From a virus (Duplodnaviria; Heunggongvirae; Uroviricota; Caudoviricetes), in the IMG/VR virus record IMGVR_UViG_2711768052_000007, positions 1 through 9,795 of that record: a stretch of 9,795 nt of DNA, one strand, 5' to 3'. The position numbers were made by a program, and so were the translations under genes. Below, in pieces: positions 1 to 9,795 of this stretch. The first letter of the stretch is position 1, and each line of letters starts with the position of its first letter. The notes beneath the pieces are model-generated. The model was not told where the DNA came from. It did not search any database and saw only the letters and a program-made list of their open reading frames with translations.

Positions 1-564
1 TCAACGACTGCGCTTAGCGTGGCGCTCCCAGTTTTCTTGCTTCGCCTGCGCCGTTTTACGTAGTGCGACGTAACACGCCCCGCTGCCGCCATGATGCGGT
101 AGCGCAGTGCAATATGCCTGAACATCATCAAATTCGGTCAGCCAGCGCGCCACATAGCTGCGGACAATATTGGCATGCGATTTATCATCCCGTCCTTTGC
201 CATGAATAATCAGCACGTTACGCAAACCATCAGCCATGGCTTGTTGAATGAAACTGAACATCATTTTGCGGCACTCTTCCACCGGCTGGCGCAAAAGATT
301 CAGGCTCGCCTGTTGCGGATATTTACCACTGCGCAGCTTATCCAGCACCCCATGTTGCAACCCTTCCCGCCGAAACTCCAGCGGCTGACTTAGTGGGATG
401 ATGTCGAGAAATCCGGTGGTGAGGAAATTATCAAGCTGCAGCGTGTCGATACGCTGCGGCGCACGTTGGTTACGCGTTGGATGCCAGTGGACATCGGTAG
501 CACGTTTCAGCGGCTGGACATCTTCCATGGCGTCAAGAAACAGCGATTTGTCGTCAAGGTTCAT
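1..564 (-). CDS. smrA: Smr-domain protein SmrA (YdaL), probable DNA endonuclease
   Basis: Complete 187-aa ORF (ATG at 564-562, stop at 3-1). The translation matches E. coli SmrA/YdaL as I recall it, including length. SD-like GGAGGATG lies upstream at about 568-575. Confidence 0.85.
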   Translation of the reverse strand: MNLDDKSLFLDAMEDVQPLKRATDVHWHPTRNQRAPQRIDTLQLDNFLTTGFLDIIPLSQPLEFRREGLQHGVLDKLRSGKYPQQASLNLLRQPVEECRKMMFSFIQQAMADGLRNVLIIHGKGRDDKSHANIVRSYVARWLTEFDDVQAYCTALPHHGGSGACYVALRKTAQAKQENWERHAKRSR

Positions 565-1297
565 GTTACATCCTCCCGCAATTAAGAGCGCGATATGATA
601 ACCAGACCGGGTCGGTCCAACAACGTATTACCCAAAATTCCAGTAATAAGTTCCAAATATTGCCGATATTTTAAGCAAAATGCTTATGCATGATTATTCA
701 TTCACGATATTTATAATTAAATGCGCATAACTTATTGAATTTAACCAACAAACATCGCTGCAAATAACGTTAAAAATCGCAAATTAACTACACCATTAAC
801 TACACCGTTCGGTGCACTGTATGCAACAATGCGGAACAAATAGACACAAGCGACGGGCTATACCGTTATCATTTTCCGGCTATCCGCCATGAAGCTGGTG
901 GATGATCACGGATAAACCGTTATGGAAGTCCCCATATCGGCATCATGCCCACCAGCGAGATTAGTTATCTGGTTGCTGATGGGAGGCTGACGAACCTCGA
1001 TGCTAGGGTGCGCAAAACTAGTGAGACCTTTTTTCTCTGCAACAGGCCCATAATTCGCGTTTTCTTTGTCTGCCGTAAGGTGGGGGATTTTTGGCGGATC
1101 CAGCAATGGCGCGGATTTTGTGATTTTTTATAGATAGACCTCATCTATCAATCCCGTGCACACCTTCCCAAAAAAAGTTTTCGAACCTGCGGCGATGAGA
1201 ACAAGGGTAGGCGGGCGGTCCCATAAGCAATGGAGTGTAGGGATTCCGATCCCCCTGGGGGTATTAAACGCCCCACCCTATTTAAATACCGTCTTTT

Positions 1298-1339
1298 TTG
1301 TCACTGGTTGTCACTCTCCGTCACGGTATGTCACCACAA
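1298..1339. repeat. Four GTCAC-containing units phased exactly every 10 bp (candidate integrase arm-type or Xis/AlpA-type binding array)
   Basis: GTCAC occurs at 1300, 1310, 1320 and 1330 (ttGTCACtgg, ttGTCACtct, ccGTCACggt, atGTCACcac), directly 3' of the last island gene. It resembles the lambda Int arm-type consensus (A/C)AGTCACTAT, recalled from memory. Confidence 0.4.
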
Positions 1340-1340
1340 G

Positions 1341-1625
1341 TTAACGTCGTAACCGTTCCGGCTTCTTCCACTGGTAAGTAATTTTTTCTTTCTCCCGGTA
1401 CATCTCTACGCGGCGACGGTATGACAACATCTCCAGAACTCTGGTTCGTATATCGCGCATATCCACGCCGTTAAGCTCAATACCATCACGGCGCATCACC
1501 TCAGCCACTACACGCGCGTAATTTTCGGCTATCACGCTGTCCGGCTGCGTGGCCTCCTGTTTGCCTGTTGTCTGGCTGGCTCCGGTAACGCGGCGAATTA
1601 TTTTGAGCATTTCGGCTTCGGTCAT
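1341..1625 (-). CDS. Hypothetical protein (94 aa) downstream of the small-terminase-like gene
   Basis: ORF with internal ATG at 1625-1623 preceded by GGAGG with about 8 nt spacing. The longer track ORF (to 1715) has no RBS. I do not recognise a family. Confidence 0.5.
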   Translation of the reverse strand: MTEAEMLKIIRRVTGASQTTGKQEATQPDSVIAENYARVVAEVMRRDGIELNGVDMRDIRTRVLEMLSYRRRVEMYREKEKITYQWKKPERLRR

Positions 1626-1770
1626 GGTTATGGCCTCCGTGGTGATGGGAAACAATGCCGTAATTGTGGCGGGTCCTTCTTGGAAAATGAAATACCGGGG
1701 TAGCCATACGCGCAATTCTTAACTGTTTATGAAAATTTTTCGAGTTCCACTCCCGGTTTTTTTATGACCT

Positions 1771-1791
1771 AACCAATTGATTAAATTGGTT
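1771..1791. promoter_or_regulatory. Perfect 8-bp inverted repeat AACCAATT-N5-AATTGGTT (operator-like)
   Basis: Read directly from the sequence, in the 215-bp gap between the terS-like stop (1840) and the next gene start (1625). Confidence 0.3.
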
Positions 1792-1839
1792 TTAAATATC
1801 AAATCAACCGGAAGTCTGACCAGTTGAGGGAAATGATGA

Positions 1840-2301
1840 TCAGGTGTCGTTTTGCCTGATTAATTTACGCTTCTTTTTGTTTTCATTTGTGTGTTTTTTA
1901 AGGCGTTTTAATGTCAGTTCTCGCCCGATCTCAATTCCCTGCGCTCTGCCCCTAGCCTGTGCGATCTCGTCCGGTGAATAACCGTAAATTTCCAGACCTT
2001 TATTAAATTTTTTTTCGTACTCTTGTTTGTCTTCTTCTTCACCAACCATACTCAACATGATTTCACGCGAATGCATAATGCAATCAAGCGGATGAAGTTC
2101 GCCAGTCATACCCAGTTCTTTGAGTCCTTCCTGTCCTCTTACCCAAAAAAGAACATGTCCTAACTGGTAGCGCCCCGGCTTTCCTTTATCTCCTTCAATG
2201 AATGGCAAACCGCGTTTAGTCCATGCCCTGACAGTTGTCCTGTCTACTCCAAATTGATCTGCTATTTCCTGCTGGCTTAAGAAAAATTCTTTTTCACTCA
2301 T
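1840..2301 (-). CDS. Terminase small subunit-like packaging protein (Nu1-type N-terminal winged-HTH, divergent C-terminus)
   Basis: The N-terminus (LSQQEIADQFGVDRTTVRAWTKRGLPFIEGDKGKPGRY) aligns with lambda Nu1 (KKQLADIFGASIRTIQNWQEQGMPVLRGGGKGNEVLY). The track ORF begins at a TTG (2337); the ATG at 2301-2299 (MSEKEFF) matches the Nu1 N-terminus better. The gene lies immediately downstream of a cos-like site. Confidence 0.7.
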   Translation of the reverse strand: MSEKEFFLSQQEIADQFGVDRTTVRAWTKRGLPFIEGDKGKPGRYQLGHVLFWVRGQEGLKELGMTGELHPLDCIMHSREIMLSMVGEEEDKQEYEKKFNKGLEIYGYSPDEIAQARGRAQGIEIGRELTLKRLKKHTNENKKKRKLIRQNDT

Positions 2302-2379
2302 AATGTTACCAATAATTACTGGTTGAATATTAATCAAGTGGTGGTGGTGTACCCTTTCCCGGAAAGCGTCATAAATAGC

Positions 2380-2440
2380 GCTTTTTTGCGCGTCTGCCGC
2401 CCCGTAACCTTTCGGATCGCCGGAAAGGACCCGTAAAAAA
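2380..2440 (-). other. Lambda-type cos site (cosQ-proximal sequence, cosN-like 12-mer, start of cosB)
   Basis: Minus strand reads ACGGGTCCTTTCCGGCGATCCGAAAGGTTACG|GGGCGGCAGACG|CGC...GCGCTATTTATGA. The lambda genome ends and start, as I recall them, read ...ACGGGTCCTTTCCGGTGATCCGACAGGTTACG|GGGCGGCGACCT|CGCGGGTTTTCGCTATTTATGA. The cosN-like 12-mer is at 2391-2402 (plus coordinates). Confidence 0.7.
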
Positions 2441-2456
2441 GCCGGATTTCTCCGGC
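2435..2456 (-). terminator. Putative intrinsic terminator after the 137-aa gene, overlapping the cosQ-proximal region
   Basis: On the minus strand, hairpin GCCGGA-gaaa-TCCGGC is followed by TTTTTT, 7 bp after the stop at 2463. It may instead be part of cos architecture. Confidence 0.35.
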
Positions 2457-2462
2457 CTTGTC

Positions 2463-2876
2463 TCAGATGGTTTTCAGTATGCGATCGATGTCGTCGTCAT
2501 CACCCGGATTTCTTCCATCGTATTCCATGCCACCTGACACTGCTTTGGGGCTGTGCATATCCATAAAGTTTTCAAAGGCTGCAGTAAGCTCCGGCGGAAC
2601 CTTCGGGCGTTCCTGCTCTATGGTCATGTTCAGGATGTCTCTTGCCCCTTCAACATCGATACAAGGAACATTCGCCATTGCACGCAACATCGGCTGATAT
2701 TCGGCTGCTTCATGAAGCGCCATAATCGCATCAGCGCGCGGCTTGTCCTGTTCTTCCAGTTTGTTCAATCGGTGTATGGCTTCGTAGGTTGATAAACCTC
2801 TGTCAGCCATTGCCCGCGCTTCGGCCTTAAATTTACTCGCCAGCGGTAGCGCCATGATCTCTTCATTGATTGCCAT
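2463..2876 (-). CDS. Hypothetical protein (137 aa, acidic C-terminus) between the decoration gene and cos
   Basis: ORF with ATG at 2876-2874 preceded by AGGGGGGA. The track ORF extends to 2930 but that extension overlaps the upstream gene and has no RBS. Family not recognised. Confidence 0.5.
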   Translation of the reverse strand: MAINEEIMALPLASKFKAEARAMADRGLSTYEAIHRLNKLEEQDKPRADAIMALHEAAEYQPMLRAMANVPCIDVEGARDILNMTIEQERPKVPPELTAAFENFMDMHSPKAVSGGMEYDGRNPGDDDDIDRILKTI

Positions 2877-2889
2877 CGTTCCCCCCTGC

Positions 2890-3225
2890 TTATCGTGCCA
2901 GCGGCTGAACGGATACGCCAGAACCCGCAAAGGCAGCGCATTTTTTCGCGTCAGTATCGACGCTCTCGGGCCAGTTAACGACGGCGATATTGAATATCCC
3001 CGTCTTGTAACACTGTGCAGATTTTTGTTTTGCCGTGTCCAGTGGGTAGGAGGTCAGATAAATGGCCTTGCCTGACTCCTGACCGCCCCACGCCTTAAAC
3101 TCGCCGTTCTCCGTCATCATCAGCGGGGTAAGCTCGGGAATAACTCCGGCATCAGCGGCAAAGTGTACCAGCGTAGTGGAAACCTGCTGTGTACCGGACA
3201 ATAATTCAACATATGGAACGCCCAT
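2890..3225 (-). CDS. Head decoration protein (lambda gpD-like)
   Basis: 111 aa. TPLMMTENGEFKAWGG...CYKTGIFNIAVVNWPES...KKCAAFAG aligns with lambda D (TPLMLDTSSRKLVAWDG...FYKSGTFRYEDVLWPEA...KRTAFAG). ATG at 3225 is preceded by GGGGGA. Confidence 0.8.
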   Translation of the reverse strand: MGVPYVELLSGTQQVSTTLVHFAADAGVIPELTPLMMTENGEFKAWGGQESGKAIYLTSYPLDTAKQKSAQCYKTGIFNIAVVNWPESVDTDAKKCAAFAGSGVSVQPLAR

Positions 3226-3236
3226 AAAATCCCCCG

Positions 3237-4292
3237 TTAACCAATTTTTACGGTAACAAATTTGCGGATATCTGCCGGAACCGGCTGTGGTGCGCTGTGC
3301 GTCTGCACGTATTCAATCGACGGATCGCCGCCCTCAATCCAGTTTTTCGGGTAGTACATGTTTCGCGTTGCGCCAGTTCTTACCGCTTCCTGATCCATAA
3401 TCGCGCCATAGGCCACCAGTCCTTTATTGCTGGTATTACCCAGAACAAGCAAATCAGGCTCAAGGAAATATTTTTCCGTTCCGTCGCCGTCAGTGTATTT
3501 ACCGGAATAAACGATAAGGGCCAGATCGCCAAGATAGCCTTTAAAGCTCACCACTTCGCCCAGGTTTTTACACGCCAGCTCTGCGGCGGATTCTGAACCA
3601 CGGGAAAGATCGTACAGTTCACGAAATTTTTTAAAGCTGCGTAACGTGCGCCATACCTCAACGCCCATAATCATGACGTTGGCGGGGCAACCTGCCTGAT
3701 CGGTGTACAGTTCGATGTCATAAATTGGATCGTGCGTTTCCTTGTCAGCCTCTGACCACTTTTTACCTTGTCCCTGCGTAATGATGTTTTTAGTCGGGAT
3801 TTTCCAGTCGATTTCGTATCGATTTATACCTTCGCCTTCAATGATGTTTTTCCCGGTCGTGACTGCATTCACCGCCAGCCATTCCACACGCGCTTTAATG
3901 GAATTTACCTGGCGGCGCATGTTGCCCGTAATCAGGCGCATACGACGGTATGTAGGGTCGTTAAGCTGTGCTGGATCTTCACCAGCCATGCGTATGATGG
4001 TTTTTGATGGATCGATTTCGTGTTTGGGTTTCATGTAGCCAGGGCGGATAGTGCTTGTTTCGTACCCTTTATCTCGCTGAACCTGGCTACCCACCATAGG
4101 CGAACAAAACGCCGACATGGTGACTTCTTCAATATCCAGGGTATCTAACATGATGTCCTGCGTGTTGAAGGTCGCCACGTTCGGGAAAAACAGCGACGTA
4201 AACAGCGGACTAAATTTAAAATCTGGAATATCCTGGCGATTCAGATATGTAAAAAGCTGATGCGTGTTAAGCGCCTGCGCTTTGTCTGTCAT
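3237..4292 (-). CDS. Major capsid protein (lambda gpE-like)
   Basis: 351 aa with conserved blocks shared with lambda E: FKFSPLF, PGYMKPKHE, EDPAQLNDPTYRRMR, VVSFKGYLGDLALIVYSGKY, VLGNT, YPKNW, GDP, SAP. The start ATG overlaps the upstream stop (ATGA). Confidence 0.9.
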   Translation of the reverse strand: MTDKAQALNTHQLFTYLNRQDIPDFKFSPLFTSLFFPNVATFNTQDIMLDTLDIEEVTMSAFCSPMVGSQVQRDKGYETSTIRPGYMKPKHEIDPSKTIIRMAGEDPAQLNDPTYRRMRLITGNMRRQVNSIKARVEWLAVNAVTTGKNIIEGEGINRYEIDWKIPTKNIITQGQGKKWSEADKETHDPIYDIELYTDQAGCPANVMIMGVEVWRTLRSFKKFRELYDLSRGSESAAELACKNLGEVVSFKGYLGDLALIVYSGKYTDGDGTEKYFLEPDLLVLGNTSNKGLVAYGAIMDQEAVRTGATRNMYYPKNWIEGGDPSIEYVQTHSAPQPVPADIRKFVTVKIG

Positions 4293-4498
4293 TGCTCACC
4301 CCCATGAGTCTGATTCATGCCAAGCGCAGCGCGTAAATGGCTGCGTACCATCCAACCAACTGACGGCTTCACCATGCACAACGGATCAAGGCCGACTTTT
4401 TTGCCTGCTTCTGCGTTCTCCTCAAAGCGCGCATTAAGTGCCGCGATAATATCGGGGCTGATGTATACGGATACACCGCCCAGCTTCTGTGTTCCCAT
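4289..4498 (-). CDS. Hypothetical small protein (69 aa), translationally coupled to the capsid gene
   Basis: ATG at 4498-4496 is preceded by AGAGGA, and the stop overlaps the capsid ATG. The upstream part of the track ORF (to 4564) has no RBS. Confidence 0.4.
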   Translation of the reverse strand: MGTQKLGGVSVYISPDIIAALNARFEENAEAGKKVGLDPLCMVKPSVGWMVRSHLRAALGMNQTHGGEQ

Positions 4499-4550
4499 AA
4501 ATGAAATTCCTCTTTGACTAAAAAACAAACATAACGAAAAATCAGTCATG

Positions 4551-4580
4551 ATTTTAATCATCATTGCATTTTTTGCAATG
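4551..4580 (-). promoter_or_regulatory. Putative sigma70-type promoter for the head/packaging operon with an overlapping inverted repeat
   Basis: On the minus strand, -35 TTGCAA (4578-4573), 16-bp spacer, -10 TAAAAT (4556-4551). The 7-bp inverted repeat CATTGCA-N5-TGCAATG (4562-4580) overlaps the -35 and spacer. Confidence 0.3.
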
Positions 4581-4675
4581 CAATTGACTATTATTGCAAA
4601 TCATGAAAGTATAATTCCGCGGTTTTACCTTGTATCGTAGAGTTGTTAGCATCAATCACGTTAACGGCATGAAAT

Positions 4676-4709
4676 CCCCCCGGAACCTCATCCCGGGGGG
4701 ATTTTTTTT
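4676..4709 (+). terminator. Strong plus-strand intrinsic terminator
   Basis: 8-bp GC stem CCCCCCGG/CCGGGGGG (4676-4683 / 4693-4700) with a 9-nt loop, followed by A and T8 (4702-4709). Confidence 0.6.
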
Positions 4710-4713
4710 GCGC

Positions 4714-4741
4714 ACAAAAAAGCCGTGAAAAATCCCGGCTT
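4714..4741 (-). terminator. Minus-strand intrinsic terminator after the SSB-like gene
   Basis: On the minus strand, hairpin AAGCCG-N10-CGGCTT is followed by TTTTTT. It lies about 15 bp downstream of the alternative-frame TAA stop at 4758-4756. Confidence 0.45.
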
Positions 4742-4755
4742 CTGTCACTCGTTGC

Positions 4756-5122
4756 TTAAAACGGTATGTTATCCCCGTACGGATCATCATTTCCCGCCTG
4801 TTGTTTTGCCCTGTTCAGTGCGTCAGTAGCCTGGCCCTGTTGACCTTTTTTGCCGCCCGGGCGCGCCGTTCTGGCCTGTCCACTGGCTTACCTGCATGTT
4901 ACCCGCCACGCTCACAAGTTCGCCTTTCTGGTGCTTTGCCAGTGCGTCGGCCTGTCTGCCAAACGCCAGGACGGATAACCACATCGTCGCCGTTCCGTCA
5001 TCTGCCTGGCTGCACGGCAGGGGAACCGCCATACTCGCCATCGCCATTTGTGTCCCTTTGCTGGTGGTCTTTAACTGCGGGTCAGCCACCAGCCGCCCGT
5101 AAGCCGCTATCTGTGCTGTCAT
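4756..5122 (-). CDS. SSB-like single-stranded DNA-binding protein with an apparent +1 frameshift near an A6 tract
   Basis: The track ORF (4823..5122) shows an SSB-like OB-fold pattern (GRLVADPQL..., WLSVLAFGRQADALAKHQKGELVSVAGNMQVSQWTGQNG versus E. coli SSB [40 protein letters not shown]). The +1 frame downstream of the A6 run (4846-4851) continues to ...AGNDDPYGDNIPF and stops at 4758-4756. IPF is the hallmark C-terminal tip of bacterial SSBs. Confidence 0.5.
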
Positions 5123-5370
5123 GATTCCACCTCTCCGGTTTTAACATTGATGGTTGTCACCTGTTCCGCTTCGGCAATCTCCCGTTCTGTCAGCGTGGCA
5201 AAGTTTGCTGCCGCCGTGGTCATGAATGCGCTTATCAGTTCGGGGTGTGCTTTCGCGTATCCTTCCCCGGCATGGCGGTCTATCGTTCTGATTGCCACCT
5301 TTAAGGCGTGCTCTGTCATGTCTAATGCGCGATATTTTGGCGCTGTCTTATCTCTGGTTTTTCTGGTCAT
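5119..5370 (-). CDS. Hypothetical protein (83 aa) between the origin and the SSB-like gene
   Basis: ORF with ATG at 5370. Its stop overlaps the SSB-like ATG (ATGA). No family recognised. Confidence 0.45.
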   Translation of the reverse strand: MTRKTRDKTAPKYRALDMTEHALKVAIRTIDRHAGEGYAKAHPELISAFMTTAAANFATLTEREIAEAEQVTTINVKTGEVES

Positions 5371-5379
5371 TCCTCACTG

Positions 5380-5573
5380 CTCCCCACTTTTACTACCCAC
5401 TTTTTGAAATTACCCAACGTCTCCCCACTTCTTTTTTTTGTGATTCTAACGTGATGTTTTTCAATGTATTTTTTATTCCCCACTTTTTGGGGTATATACA
5501 GGTGGGAAAGTGGGGAATCGCGTTTCAATTTTGTTAAATTCCCCATACTCCCCACTTTTACTACCCACTTTTT
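5380..5573. repeat. Iteron-type origin of replication candidate
   Basis: An identical 26-bp direct repeat CTCCCCACTTTTACTACCCACTTTTT occurs at 5380-5405 and 5548-5573. The short motif TCCCCACTT occurs at 5381, 5422, 5477 and 5549, with an inverted copy AAGTGGGGA at 5508-5516. An AT-rich spacer lies at 5431-5476. The region is immediately 3' of the Rep-type gene. Confidence 0.6.
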
Positions 5574-6987
5574 ACAGTGGGCGCACGTCATCACCGTCAA
5601 TAGCAATAACGCCATCACCTTCCAGCTTGTACAGCCAGCGCCGGAAGTGTTTCATCTCATACCCCAGCTTTTTCATATCATCGCGCAACAACGGAATTGT
5701 GCATTTATCGCCGCGCTGTGTGCGTGAACGGATACAGCCCCATAGCGCGGCATGATTCTCCGTCTTGTTCCCGGCTTCCTCGATGCGCTCCAGTTCAACG
5801 GGTGGGCGCGGTTTATCCACAACCACCAGCGACGTGATTAACTCCTTGTCAGCGTCGGTAAAAAGCTCCACCACACGTAAATCGTATGCAGCCTCTTTCA
5901 GTTCCTCCGCGTCCTTCATTTTGGTGCAGGAGATAACCAGGGCTTCACTGTCTGCACCTTCACGGCGAATACGGTATTCAGCGTCCAGAGATGCACGAAA
6001 TGCACTGGAACCACGCGCCCCCTTTGTTTCATCCTTGCCGGAATGGTGAACCACCAGCACCGTGGCCCCTGTGCGGCGTTTCAGTTCGTCACATCCACGG
6101 ATAAACGCCCCCATATCCCGCGCGTCATTTTCATCATTACCGCCAAAGCAACGCGCCAGCGTATCAAGAATAATCATGCGTACCGGTTTACCCGTTTCCC
6201 GTTCAACCTGGCGGGAAGCGATGACCATTTCATCAACATCAAGCGGGACTGCCGGAAAAATCGGGCGGTTTACCAGGTACAGATTTTCCACCCGTTCATC
6301 ATTAACGATTTCCCATGCCTTGATACGGCGGGGGACACCAATGCCACCTTCACCGACAACATACATCACCGAACCATGCGCCACCCTGCGGCCTCCCCAG
6401 TGACGGCCAGTGGCAACATGACACGCCCAGGAACACGCGAGGAACGATTTATAGGAACCGCTCGCGCCGTATGTGCTGCACAATGAATTAGCCGGAATCA
6501 CGCCCTTAACGACATAATCAAGCTGTGTGTCGTACCCTGCAGATCCAATGCTCATTGGTAGCGTGGTTTTTCGCTGGCTGTATTGCTCGTCAGTAAGTAT
6601 TTCCCCGCGCTCTGCCTGTTCGCGGATCCGTTGCAGGTAGTCGTGCCAGTTCTCCAGCTTCTGGCTGTGCATTCCATCAGGGTAATAATTCGCATCCCGT
6701 ACACCTGCCGCCGCCAGCTTTTGCCCGATAGCATTAATATTTGACGGCTTGATGTGGCCTGCCTTGTACAGCCGGACACAATAGCGACCATCGTCGATGA
6801 TTTTCAGGTCTGCCAGTTCGTCAAGCTGGCTGTCTCCAAGCCATACGGGTGGCACGTTGTCGCCAGCAAGTCGCCCGTCCTGTTCCTGCCATTGTTTCGC
6901 GTGCGCCCAGGCATCACTACCCGCAAAAATAATGACTTCGGTCATTTTGTCGTGTGGCTGTTTTTTTAAGTTCGGTGCCAGTTTCAT
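5572..6987 (-). CDS. Replication initiator / helicase-type ATPase (RecA-like P-loop NTPase with C-terminal winged-helix)
   Basis: 471 aa with a Walker A-like YGASGSYKSF, then MIILDTLAR and VLVVHHSGKDETKG blocks typical of RepA/DnaB-like satellite and plasmid replication ATPases. The C-terminus looks like a DNA-binding domain. The start ATG overlaps the upstream stop (ATGA). Confidence 0.75.
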   Translation of the reverse strand: MKLAPNLKKQPHDKMTEVIIFAGSDAWAHAKQWQEQDGRLAGDNVPPVWLGDSQLDELADLKIIDDGRYCVRLYKAGHIKPSNINAIGQKLAAAGVRDANYYPDGMHSQKLENWHDYLQRIREQAERGEILTDEQYSQRKTTLPMSIGSAGYDTQLDYVVKGVIPANSLCSTYGASGSYKSFLACSWACHVATGRHWGGRRVAHGSVMYVVGEGGIGVPRRIKAWEIVNDERVENLYLVNRPIFPAVPLDVDEMVIASRQVERETGKPVRMIILDTLARCFGGNDENDARDMGAFIRGCDELKRRTGATVLVVHHSGKDETKGARGSSAFRASLDAEYRIRREGADSEALVISCTKMKDAEELKEAAYDLRVVELFTDADKELITSLVVVDKPRPPVELERIEEAGNKTENHAALWGCIRSRTQRGDKCTIPLLRDDMKKLGYEMKHFRRWLYKLEGDGVIAIDGDDVRPL

Positions 6988-7283
6988 TTTTTACCCCTGA
7001 ATGCGTTAATCATGTTTTTCATTTTCTGAATATTTGCCCGTGCCTTTGCGTTGCTGGTGGGCTGTTTGCGTGGTGTGGCCTGTATCAGTGAAAAATCACG
7101 CCGGAACTGATAAACAGGCATCACGCAGTCATAACCGTACCCATCACGGCGGTAAGTAACGCACCGTCCCGCCACGCTTTTAATCGTTACCGTGCCGCCG
7201 TAGTTATCCCGGAAAATATCGCCGGGGCGGATTTCAGGCCGAGCGGGGCCGCTGGCAGTAAAGCCAGAATTTTTCTTTTTCAT
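6984..7283 (-). CDS. Hypothetical protein (99 aa, basic C-terminal tail), translationally coupled to the rep gene
   Basis: ATG at 7283 is preceded by AGAGGA. No family recognised. Confidence 0.5.
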   Translation of the reverse strand: MKKKNSGFTASGPARPEIRPGDIFRDNYGGTVTIKSVAGRCVTYRRDGYGYDCVMPVYQFRRDFSLIQATPRKQPTSNAKARANIQKMKNMINAFRGKK

Positions 7284-7288
7284 GGTTT

Positions 7289-7498
7289 TTATTCCTCTGC
7301 GCGGGTCTTGTCGTGTATTTCCATAACCGCGTTTAATTCATCAATAACCGGGGTTAACAGAGTGCTGAAAGCAGAAAATAAATCCCCCCCCCGTTCGGCA
7401 TGAACTTCGGTTAATTTAATTAATACCGCTTTCATTTCCAGTGCCCGGTTTAATGCATTCTCAGAATGAATAAGAACATCGAAAGGGATTTTATCCAT
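7289..7498 (-). CDS. Hypothetical small helical protein (69 aa) containing a G10 homopolymer
   Basis: ATG at 7498 overlaps the upstream gene end by 8 nt. A run of 10 C (plus strand 7383-7392) lies inside the ORF. No family recognised. Confidence 0.4.
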   Translation of the reverse strand: MDKIPFDVLIHSENALNRALEMKAVLIKLTEVHAERGGDLFSAFSTLLTPVIDELNAVMEIHDKTRAEE

Positions 7499-7957
7499 GG
7501 CTTACATCCTCCGTGAATTTTCTTCTGTACCGTGCCTCTGCCACATATTCAGCATAGTCCGACGCAATAATAAGAATATCGTTGCCGGTTCCTGAATGTT
7601 CAGCGGTTCCAATTAAAAAACATGCGGCCTTTATCAGGTCATTAACAGCCAGCAACGCATCGCCTGTATCATCCGGTGCGCCATCAAATTCCTGTTTCAG
7701 GGCATTAAAACGATCATCACGCATAACCCCCCCCCATTTTCACAATCAGCAATCAGGATGGCTTTGGCCTCATTCAGTGCCATATCAGCGGTAAGCTGTG
7801 CGTAGGCCAGCGAATGGGGGATTATTGCCCCTGTATACTCCGGCTCTCTGGTAATGTGTTTTTCTGCGGTTGCTGCCGTGCATGAAATATCAATCAGCGC
7901 GTGCATCAGCGTAGTGAGCGCGGCGGCTGCTGCGTCCGGACGTGGGTTATTGCACAT
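7491..7957 (-). pseudogene. Hypothetical protein split into two ORFs at a G9 homopolymer (frameshifted or phase-variable)
   Basis: ATG at 7957-7955 has a strong RBS (AGGAGGT, 5-nt spacer). The frame runs to a stop at 7699-7697 just after the G9 tract (plus-strand C9 at 7727-7735). The 77-aa ORF 7491..7724 continues in the +1 frame, and one extra G would fuse both into about 157 aa. Confidence 0.4.
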
Positions 7958-8249
7958 GGCGCACCTCCTGACGAATACGGGCGGCGAATACAGCGACACA
8001 ACCGGACGGGCAACGGTTACGCGCTTCGCGTTCTGTCCATGCGGTGACGTGGATGATTTGAGATTCTCCGGCACTCAGTGCCAGAAAACGCCACACAAAG
8101 GCCGTTTGTGTGTGCGCTAGGCGTGGGGTATGCTGTGTTCCAGCCATAATCGTTACCTCGTTTAACGGTTTGGTTAGAAGCCCCGTTACTGCTCCAACAG
8201 TGCGGGGCTTCGTCGTTTCAATTGCTGAATTGCATGTATCAGCCCTTGT

Positions 8250-8316
8250 GGTATTCAGATTACATTTTGGTGAATACCATTTCAAGTCTTTTTTGGTATT
8301 CACTTTTGTATTACAC
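8250..8316. promoter_or_regulatory. Operator-like repeats GGTATTCA(C) upstream of the ribbon-helix-helix gene
   Basis: GGTATTCA at 8250-8257; a perfect 9-bp inverted pair GTGAATACC (8270-8278) and GGTATTCAC (8295-8303); a degenerate copy GTATTACAC at 8308-8316. A candidate -10 TATTAAT lies at 8327-8333. Confidence 0.35.
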
Positions 8317-8346
8317 TGCATCCCGTTATTAATCGGAGGTGCAAAC

Positions 8347-8652
8347 ATGTCCACGAGTTCTGTTAACAATAAGTCACAGCAACTGAATGCCAGATTTCCA
8401 CATGAAGTAGTGAGTGGCATTGAGGCATCCCTACAGCCAGGGGAAACTAAAGCGAATTTTATAGTTACGGCTGTACGCGGTGAGATCGCCCGCCGCCAGG
8501 CAGAAGGAAGCGGAGAAAATCCCCTGGTTTCTTCGCTCGATGCACTGGCGCAGGTGGAAAAAATCGGAGTCAAAGCAGCCGAGGAGATCGGGCAACTCGT
8601 CACCGTCGCGCGTGAAGAACTCCAGCGCCGCAAGGCCAAAGAGCAGGAATAG
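8347..8652 (+). CDS. Ribbon-helix-helix (Arc/CopG-like) DNA-binding protein, putative island regulator
   Basis: 101 aa with a strong RBS (GGAGGTG, 5-nt spacer). The N-terminus (QQLNARFPHEVVSGIEASL...ANFIVTAVRGEIARR) fits the beta-strand plus two-helix RHH pattern. It is the only convincing plus-strand gene in the island. Confidence 0.55.
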   Translation: MSTSSVNNKSQQLNARFPHEVVSGIEASLQPGETKANFIVTAVRGEIARRQAEGSGENPLVSSLDALAQVEKIGVKAAEEIGQLVTVAREELQRRKAKEQE

Positions 8653-8656
8653 CCCC

Positions 8657-8675
8657 ACCGGAATTTTTTTCCGGT
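8657..8675. terminator. Hairpin between convergent genes (possible bidirectional terminator)
   Basis: ACCGGAA-TTTTT-TTCCGGT lies 5 bp after the RHH stop and abuts an out-of-frame minus-strand TAA. There is no long U-tract on either side. Confidence 0.3.
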
Positions 8676-9143
8676 TACGCTTTGCCCACCAGCCGCAAAT
8701 GTGGCATTGTTGGTGATGCGTTCAAGTTTGATTTGCCGTAATACCCACTGGCGACCCTTTGCGGTCGCCTTTGTTTTGCCTGTTATCCGGCAATTGTGGC
8801 GCTTCGCCACACGGTTGATATAATCCCACTGCTCAGATTCATTTTTTGCGCAGTAGGTTAATTGTTCGCAAGGGCGCTCCGGCAACGGGGCGCTTTTTGT
8901 TTTTATTAGTTTGTAGAAAACTGACTCAGAGATAATGCTCATATTCTGATTGCCGTCAGGGGGGTAAGTTAAATTTACTCCCTTTTCATCAAGCATCTGC
9001 AACGCTCTGGCGTTAATAATATTGGTTTCACTCCCGCCAATAAGGCCGGAAATAACCGGAATAATTTCAGCGAAATTTTGCAGATTCTGGTTTTCAGGCC
9101 GAACGAAGCCCCGCCCCTGTACAGGCGTATATCCAGTATTCAT
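8675..9143 (-). CDS. Hypothetical protein with a weak Bro-N/Ant-like motif; C-terminal frame unresolved
   Basis: ATG at 9143. The first 150 residues or so look protein-like, and ISESVFYKLIKTKSAP resembles the SESGLYxLIxRSRKPEA motif of Bro-N/Ant-type proteins. The in-frame ORF has no stop until 7947 and runs antisense through the RHH gene; a TAA in the +1 frame at 8677-8675 is the likely true end. Confidence 0.4.
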
Positions 9144-9195
9144 GGTTAAATCTCTGTATTAGTGGATGGGTGGCGGCTGTGTGCCGCCAGCCTGA

Positions 9196-9384
9196 TTAGT
9201 GAACTGCCTCGCGGCTGTCCTTCCATGCCAGAACTTCGGATAAAGACCAGCCAACGGAACGACCACCGAGTTTACGCCGTGATGGGAATTGTCCAGTCTT
9301 CTCCAGGCGATACCGACATGAGCGGCTCAGGCCTGTAAGTTGCTGACATTCTTTTTCACGTATAAAGCGATCTGTGCTTAACAC
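9196..9384 (-). CDS. alpA: AlpA-family (Xis-like HTH) transcriptional regulator
   Basis: The C-terminal 62 aa (VLSTDRFIREKECQQLTGLSRSCRYRLEKTGQFPSRRKLGGRSVGWSLSEVLAWKDSRE) matches the AlpA pattern. A GTG start at 9384-9382 is preceded by AAGGGGGA. The track ORF's upstream 36 codons are low-complexity and lack an RBS. Confidence 0.7.
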   Translation of the reverse strand: MLSTDRFIREKECQQLTGLSRSCRYRLEKTGQFPSRRKLGGRSVGWSLSEVLAWKDSREAVH

Positions 9385-9680
9385 AATTCCCCCTTTGTTG
9401 TTTCTTAAAGAGTCATTGGGTGGATTATTGGGTTGGGTTGTGTCGGATTGTGTCAGGGTGTTTATGGAATGGCAAACACTGGTGGCGGTCATTTTACAGA
9501 AGTGGGGGTAGTGAGAATAAAAATCCTTTTAATTCATTATGATGTAAAGGCATAAAATTCTGTTTTTACGCCTTTTTTACATGTTTTTAAGAGTGATTCG
9601 CCAATGTACAAAAAGCCAGTAAAACGACTGAAAATCAACTTTTTAGGGTGTCAGTCAGATGATAATCAAGTTTGTTCCAG

Positions 9681-9730
9681 ATTGTTCGCCGTTGTTCGTC
9701 GTGGTGTCTCGTTGTTTCACGTTGTGTCCG
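9681..9730. repeat. Five degenerate direct repeats phased every 10 bp (candidate recombination or regulatory protein binding array)
   Basis: attgttcgcc / gttgttcgtc / gtggtgtctc / gttgtttcac / gttgtgtccg, in non-coding DNA about 300 bp to the right of alpA. All three minus-strand frames hit stops within 60 nt of the window end, so no integrase 3' end is present. Confidence 0.35.
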
Positions 9731-9795
9731 TTCTAAAAAATCGCAAAAAAAATTATATTTCTCTGGCTATTGGCAGTGTGGTTACGTTTTCGTGA

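Follow-up and report, generated by a model that had tools for sequence, protein, structure and literature searches.

A conserved stop-free frame between alpA and icd in an Escherichia coli phage satellite as a probable counterpart of the nested eta/kil genes of P4

The closest described counterpart of the locus reported here is the immunity region of P4. According to the account of Forti et al. 1999 given in PMC10111431, eta and kil are nested genes in this region, the long form being made only from upstream transcripts and its translation being reported to prevent premature termination (PMC10111431). The same source divides the phage-inducible chromosomal islands (PICIs) of Gram-negative bacteria into Integration, Bro, Replication and Late segments, and treats P4 Eta as a Bro-network protein. 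In the island EcCICFT073, the alpA promoter is activated by AlpA itself, on which reporters inserted downstream of alpA also depend (PMC6092414). The present analysis concerns the zone downstream of alpA in a 9,795-nucleotide stretch of DNA (positions 1 to 9,795 of IMG/VR record IMGVR_UViG_2711768052_000007; hereafter, the window), which originates from a PICI-type phage satellite of E. coli inserted beside smrA. On the minus strand of this satellite, a 398-codon open reading frame (ORF) runs from the vicinity of alpA through to the end of icd, and we regard it, with a probability of roughly 0.6, as a genuine selected open frame and as the E. coli PICI counterpart of P4 eta/kil.

The stop-free long frame ("corridor") occupies positions 7947 to 9143 of the minus strand, from an ATG located 50 nt downstream of alpA to a TAA (7949-7947) which is also the stop codon of icd. 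Its presence, and its course antisense through a ribbon-helix-helix (RHH) gene and past a hairpin, had been recorded in a first-pass annotation of the window made from the letters alone, and the ORF listing agrees with that description. Across the 337 codons (1051 nt) which precede the icd ATG, the ORF frame is devoid of stops, whereas the remaining minus-strand frames have 20 and 23 of them. Chance does not explain the open frame: given 0.047-0.064 stops per codon locally, the probability of such a frame is approximately 1e-7 to 1e-10. A second complete genome, NZ_CP148463 (98% identical), harbors the same 398-codon ORF in identical form. The 3' end of the frame, whose identity the first-pass annotation had missed, is an Icd/Kil-like gene of 66 aa (7947 to 8147, minus strand), which constitutes the in-frame last 66 codons of the long ORF, shares its stop codon and possesses its own GAGG Shine-Dalgarno sequence and ATG. 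The NCBIfam model NF033153 (phage_ICD_like, E 5.1e-18) matches residues 349-392 of the ORF as well as the 66-aa gene alone, the Icd-like product aligns with P4 Kil, and the equivalent of 7947-8147 in NZ_CP148463 is annotated as Icd-like by the Prokaryotic Genome Annotation Pipeline (PGAP). Many 270-289-aa "Icd-like" proteins of the same layout are present in the databases.

The arrangement in P4 is alike in that a long ORF spans a regulatory zone and closes, in frame, with a Kil/Icd-like gene: a 214-codon ORF at P4 positions 8168-8812 shares 49 nt with the end of vis (the alpA homolog) and terminates as the 65-aa Kil. Unlike the P4 ORF, the window frame does not overlap its upstream neighbor, opening 37 nt past the alpA stop with its ATG 50 nt past it, while many relatives open 3 nt after alpA or overlap it. 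A further difference lies in what is crossed, as the window frame is antisense to a protein gene, three terminators and a candidate small RNA, whereas the RNAs detected by Rfam inside the 214-codon ORF of P4 (C4/CI at 8420-8507 and an isrK-like RNA at 8615-8692) lie on the same strand as that ORF. Sequence similarity between P4 and the window is confined to Icd/Kil; the likeness to P4 eta/kil is one of operation, and by sequence the window ORF falls outside that family. P4 Eta itself matches Pfam Phage_ASH over residues 37-161 (E 4.5e-23), and this stretch coincides with that encoding the isrK-like and C4/CI RNAs (P4 8420-8692, minus strand); the Phage_ASH "protein family" may largely reflect conservation of RNA genes. 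A C4/CI or isrK RNA was also considered as an occupant of the window ORF and was discarded, Rfam having returned only noise (sau-6072, RsaJ and sar).

With the "Bro zone" of PICIs as presented in PMC10111431, the window frame shares its position between alpA and the replication genes, its mosaic AntA/Bro-N-type N termini and the analogy to P4 eta. It differs from that description, which is one of Bro-network protein genes, some with C4 or isrK RNAs, and in which a stop-free frame across opposite-strand genes and terminators does not figure; moreover, the Bro-N and AntA parts in the window are incomplete.

In phages P1 and P7, the immI operon reportedly consists of c4 RNA, icd and ant, as Biere, Citron and Schuster are said to have described in 1992 and Riedel et al. 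in 1993, and translation of icd is said to be needed against Rho-dependent termination, so that the downstream genes are transcribed. The Icd-family gene is common to P1 immI and to the window; in P1, by contrast, icd is the first short ORF, control is exerted by a processed RNA of the same strand, and no long upstream frame is present.

Conservation of the open frame was assessed in loci anchored on icd alone, so that the state of the upstream frame had no influence on their choice. The sample comprised 160 IMG/VR loci together with the window, two E. coli genomes, a Klebsiella satellite and two species representatives; a scan of one genome per species returned two loci only, and IMG/VR served as the main source. 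Dereplication of the 162 usable loci gave 89 variants. A stop-free frame of 600-1950 nt is fused in phase to icd in 59 of these 89, in 24 others the end of the frame falls in the interval from -30 to +10 nt relative to the icd ATG, and the remaining 6 conform to neither pattern; overall, 83 of the 89 variants possess a comparable frame. In loci with alpA as the immediate upstream neighbor, the frame as a rule opens 3-40 nt past alpA or overlaps its end. In the related loci, one sense frame contains 0-2 stops, as against 10-40 in the other two, and crosses, in antisense, one to three small genes of the opposite strand, its translation being rich in Ser, Cys, Leu and Arg and wholly different between variants. 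The Klebsiella satellite vB_KppS-Ant, whose icd is 60% identical, exhibits the same layout, with a 324-aa ORF that ends in Icd and a 67-aa YlcI-like (RHH) gene embedded antisense within it. A second family of embedded opposite-strand genes, encoding products of 57-60 aa (MTDKELTKTLSPARKRRRRK...ERFAPCAFALEQFLKEY...), was observed in loci L164, L007 and L111 and in many others, always in the wobble-coincident phase, as are the RHH genes.

The third codon positions of the RHH gene coincide with those of the long ORF, for which reason Nei-Gojobori dN/dS estimates were uninformative, both frames appearing constrained, and were replaced by a transversion test based on degeneracy classes. At four-fold sites of the long frame, transversions affected 21% of the sites where the embedded gene is likewise four-fold and only 1.9% of those where it is two-fold (odds ratio 14, P 5e-8). 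The embedded genes are real and under strong purifying selection. At four-fold sites of the embedded genes, the ratio of transversions to transitions did not differ between long-frame codons that are four-fold (29:23) and those that are two-fold (10:7), and the examination for a dual-coding antisense pair found no purifying selection on the amino acids of the long frame, the embedded genes being constrained. Changes that introduce stops follow a different pattern: at these sites, stop-creating transversions at Cys or Tyr codons of the long frame number 0 of 22 (P 0.015), transversions at four-fold long-frame codons numbering 29 of 136, and among variants that align with the window new stops arise at 2 sites in the ORF frame versus 15 and 14 in the other minus-strand frames (binomial probability approximately 5e-4). 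Of 121 embedded genes taken in an unbiased census, 109 lack stops in the antisense frame whose wobble positions coincide, compared with 5 and 8 in the two remaining phases. Selection keeps the frame open but does not maintain its amino acid sequence. A figure of 10 kb of "non-redundant stop-free DNA" was also obtained and was set aside as a test owing to its circularity, since the frames had been picked for being stop-free.

Several observations weigh against the interpretation of the frame as a selected counterpart of eta/kil. The RHH segment taken alone has a no-stop probability of 0.16 under synonymous resampling, which is not significant, and the E. coli K-12 genes ylcI (L167, 5252-5446) and ynfO (L168, 4757-4990) are also stop-free in the corresponding antisense frame; both reside in lambdoid cryptic prophages beside nohD and nohA, and this control did not separate a satellite from a prophage context. 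The mosaic variants share modules and are not fully independent of one another, so that the counts given above are inflated. Some common variants break the frame soon past the conserved block described below, an example being the 109-aa P0034 (95 contigs). Neither C4/CI nor isrK was detected in the window by Rfam, whether the gathering threshold was applied or E values up to 10 were admitted, and Pfam Phage_ASH matched neither the window ORF nor seven relatives. The start of the long frame is preceded by a weak Shine-Dalgarno sequence only (GAGA), and PGAP did not call the long ORF in NZ_CP148463, leaving the equivalent of 8653-9195 unannotated. Finally, RNA of the minus strand across the RHH gene displays only a mild excess of C (0.29) over G (0.25), which gives no clear indication of a strong rut site.

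The first three of these points, namely the resampling result, the K-12 genes and the shared modules, favor a reading in which the frame is open passively, as a by-product that has no function, the wobble-sharing antisense strand of a Tyr-poor gene being poor in stops and the rest being due to chance and to shared modules. We consider this improbable, because about 230 of the codons lie outside the embedded gene, including a spacer of 42% GC with promoter and terminator in which the ORF frame has no stops versus 7 and 6 in the other frames. Stop-creating changes are missing from the long frame in both of the comparisons described above, junctions between unrelated cassettes preserve the phase of icd in the 59 fused variants while most others end within 30 nt of its ATG, and the layout recurs in Klebsiella and in P4.

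A quite different account would be that the frame is an artifact, and it was in this direction that the first-pass annotation pointed. It had proposed that a one-base error or mutation in the GGTGGG region deprived a gene of approximately 150 codons of its stop, as a third homopolymer-adjacent frame problem of the island, and that the remainder is meaningless read-through, the gene and the convergent RHH gene having shared a terminator. Its reading of the letters was accurate, in that deletion of one G in GGTGGG does lead to ...ATFAAGGKA* and a TAA in the +1 frame (8677-8675) does follow the hairpin at 8657-8675, which itself follows the TAG of the RHH gene. The existence of a frameshifted gene for a single-stranded DNA-binding protein (SSB), flagged by PGAP in the closest relative, and the unannotated state of 8653-9195 there are also in keeping with such a defect. 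This explanation nevertheless deserves hardly any credence. The junction GCT GGT GG(G/A) CAA is present in 58 loci and in every one of them is unchanged in length and frame, with no length polymorphism in the run; no homolog ends at the predicted stop or terminates in ...AAGGKA; the sequence is identical in the independent complete genome NZ_CP148463; and icd is entered in phase, as in the 59 fused variants. GGTGGG, moreover, is part of a conserved Chi site (see below), codons 81-151 have no coding signal, and the proposed shared terminator has no U-tract. The long ORF resembles a pseudogene in the odd composition of a long frame that crosses another gene and in the SSB frameshift elsewhere in the island, but differs in that the open frame is conserved and selected. 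The first-pass annotation had named conservation of the 398-aa ORF in orthologs as an observation that would speak against it, and such conservation was found for the open frame but not for the protein sequence. Programmed frameshifting at the in-frame A AAA AAA (8664-8670) was entertained as well and rejected, as downstream structure is lacking, the -1 frame would be pointless and the cassette is rare.

The first 80 codons (8904 to 9143, minus strand) are a chimeric remnant. Residues 1-48 align to the very start of an AntA-family protein (P0103), covering its leader and first residues, and residues 42-82 to about the last 40 positions, or C-terminal half, of the Bro-N domain of P0016. Pfam detected no complete Bro-N (PF02498) or AntA (PF08346) domain, even at E values up to 10. 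Nucleotide diversity at codon positions 1, 2 and 3 is 0.039, 0.050 and 0.092, respectively, and this third-position bias indicates that the segment behaves, now or recently, as coding sequence. The variants have in common a start peptide of the form M-x-x-x-Y-x-P-x-x-G-R-G-F-V-R-P. Codons 1-80 are a remnant of recombination. The earlier view that the first 150 or so codons resemble a real protein stands for this part, chimeric as it is, but not for codons 81-151, where periodicity is absent.

Codons 81-151 correspond to a block of conserved DNA (8691 to 8903, minus strand) with no codon periodicity in the ORF frame, the diversity by codon position being 0.153/0.166/0.141, and the block is present in many homologs whose N termini differ. 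This part of the product is the translation of two plus-strand terminator hairpins, which had escaped the first-pass annotation. The first, T2, is an intrinsic terminator at 8750-8779 (GGCGACC-CTTTGC-GGTCGCC followed by TTTGTTTTGC; fold z -3.7), whose variants form G.U pairs on the plus strand in five cases versus one on the minus strand. The second, T3, was located by a terminator scan at 8870-8897, with a T-run that extends to 8907. Between the two terminators lies a conserved extended -10 element, TGATATAAT, at 8816-8824, as read off the sequence, and together with a structured body and T3 it delimits a candidate small RNA of approximately 75 nt (8816 to 8907, plus strand). The predicted RNA folds with -31.7 kcal/mol and a z-score of -4.75 on the plus strand versus -2.2 on the minus strand, G.U pairs among the variants of the RNA and T3 number 17 on the plus strand versus 1 on the minus strand, and the RNA is antisense to codons 80-105, in the leader part of the long ORF. 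Rfam contains no family matching 8816-8907.

The conserved block ends with GCT GGT GGG, which constitutes a Chi site (GCTGGTGG, 8686-8693, minus strand) read by the long frame as the codons A-G-G of ...ATFAAGGQ, and unrelated cassettes start directly after it. Chi sites are abundant throughout the window, with 8 in 9.8 kb versus 0.28 expected from shuffles, at positions 894(+), 949(-), 5060(+), 5086(-), 5823(-), 6051(-), 7053(+) and 8686(-). The related loci (n = 166) hold 783 Chi sites in 827 kb, or approximately one per 1.06 kb, the E. coli chromosome carrying about one Chi per 4.6 kb. This density may shield linear or replicating island DNA from RecBCD or, alternatively, may promote the exchange of cassettes.

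Codons 152-332 are antisense to, in order, the 8657-8675 hairpin, a gene of the YlcI/YnfO family, a series of TGGTATTCA repeats and a hairpin at 8177-8212. The hairpin next to the RHH stop (ACCGGAA-TTTTT-TTCCGGT) is built on a stem of 7 bp and lacks a U-tail on both strands; its fold in context gives a z-score of -2.8 on the plus and -1.0 on the minus strand, it is present in only three of the fetched loci, and it is no canonical terminator. The YlcI/YnfO-family (RHH-like) gene occupies 8347 to 8652 of the plus strand, is preceded by a GGAGG Shine-Dalgarno sequence and matches NCBIfam NF041551 (E 1.3e-16), which bears out the first-pass opinion that the long frame past approximately codon 150 is no conventional protein and lies antisense to a genuine gene. 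The RHH label derives from the family match together with a weak Rv0623-like match in Pfam; a PDB sequence search with the protein returned only spurious matches to DNA polymerase beta (E about 0.1), the RHH fold being therefore only presumed, and tblastn of the protein against phage genomes gave no match.

Just upstream of the RHH gene, and within the long ORF, a repeat search located three TGGTATTCA(C) copies (8249 to 8303) in alternating orientation, 22-23 bp or about two helical turns apart, which are likely operators. The existence of a repressor in Gram-negative PICIs was called unclear by Fillol-Salom et al. 2018, and the RHH gene could encode the island repressor said to be absent from these elements; gene and operator-like repeats are flagged here as a candidate for that role.

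The conserved hairpin at 8177-8212, designated T1 and counted as the third plus-strand terminator, is followed on that strand by a T-rich tail to 8226; read by the long ORF, it yields ...ETTKPRTVGAVTGLL... (fold z-score -4.1). Covariation is seen in 8 of its 13 pairs, with 84.7% of cells paired versus 30-47% in slid controls. Among its variants, 44 A.C mismatches in the ORF sense correspond to G.U pairs on the plus strand and none was found in the reverse direction, a one-way asymmetry that identifies T1 as an RNA element of the plus strand. An almost invariant sequence, TCTAACCA, directly follows T1 in the ORF sense. T1 would end a plus-strand RNA antisense to the ribosome-binding site and 5' coding region of icd; such a putative RNA is reminiscent of a type I antitoxin RNA, the toxin here being Icd/Kil, and no promoter for it was identified.

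It is in relation to this anatomy that a third explanation must be weighed, in which the long product is a functional protein, either a long Icd isoform or a regulator of the Bro network like P4 Eta, in which the conserved N-terminal peptide and the Icd domain at the C terminus would cooperate, the middle serving as a tolerant linker. The conserved N-terminal peptide, the coding-like codons 1-80, the in-frame Icd domain and the many "Icd-like" database entries of 270-289 aa are all compatible with such a protein, as is the treatment of P4 Eta as a Bro-network protein in PMC10111431. We nonetheless regard it as unlikely, since Pfam and NCBIfam searches with the whole ORF and with residues 1-154 recognized Icd as the sole match, the N terminus is chimeric with both AntA and Bro-N incomplete, and the middle 250 residues are a translation of terminators, repeats and an antisense gene, variable and free of amino acid constraint. 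The fusion to icd, furthermore, is evidently not required, given that the frame stops just before icd in 24 of the 89 variants.

The preferred interpretation, a selected open frame equivalent to eta/kil, suggests the following course of events. The frame lies downstream of alpA (9196-9384, minus strand, PGAP coordinates; Pfam Phage_AlpA, E 9e-18) in the same transcription unit, and a scan of the minus strand upstream of icd recovered a single consensus-like promoter, at 9447-9475 ahead of alpA (TTGCCA-17-CACAAT with TG), which is presumed, as a sigma-70-like consensus match, to be the alpA promoter; no consensus promoter was found on that strand between alpA and icd. Upon induction, a helper phage would switch on alpA, and the transcript from the alpA promoter would travel approximately 1.3 kb toward icd and the replication and packaging genes, running antisense to the RHH gene, the three terminators and probably the small RNAs. 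Ribosomes engaged on the long frame would protect this transcript from Rho-dependent and antisense-RNA-mediated termination and would also be delivered to icd, while a transcript starting inside the zone would yield the short Icd only.

A related proposal is that stop-freeness is the sole selected property of the frame, permitting the AlpA transcript to cross the RHH gene, the terminators and the small RNA while shielded from Rho, with the repressor silenced by convergent transcription and Chi aiding a frame-preserving exchange of cassettes; this combination we put forward tentatively. The matter has practical consequences, as annotation pipelines label such ORFs inconsistently, as a 280-aa "Icd-like" protein, as hypothetical, as "ash family" or not at all, an inconsistency which is explained once they are recognized as selected open frames. 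The question of how Gram-negative PICIs carry AlpA-dependent transcription across opposing genes and terminators is also rendered testable, and the locus would illustrate cleanly how selection can favor translation as such and not the protein product.

In the remainder of the window, the order of the minus-strand genes is major capsid, AAA_25 primase-like, DUF4222, small ORFs, Icd-like and alpA, with the integrase just past the window, and the island is possibly a capsid-forming satellite. A GC-only hairpin (GGCGGC-TGTGT-GCCGCC, 9172-9188) without a U-tract on either strand is situated between the alpA stop and the start of the ORF. An SSB-like ORF of 99 aa is the only one open at 4823-5122 (minus strand) and in its neighborhood, and its counterpart in NZ_CP148463 is the SSB gene designated frameshifted by PGAP; the island lineage may therefore hold at least one true frame defect, that of SSB.

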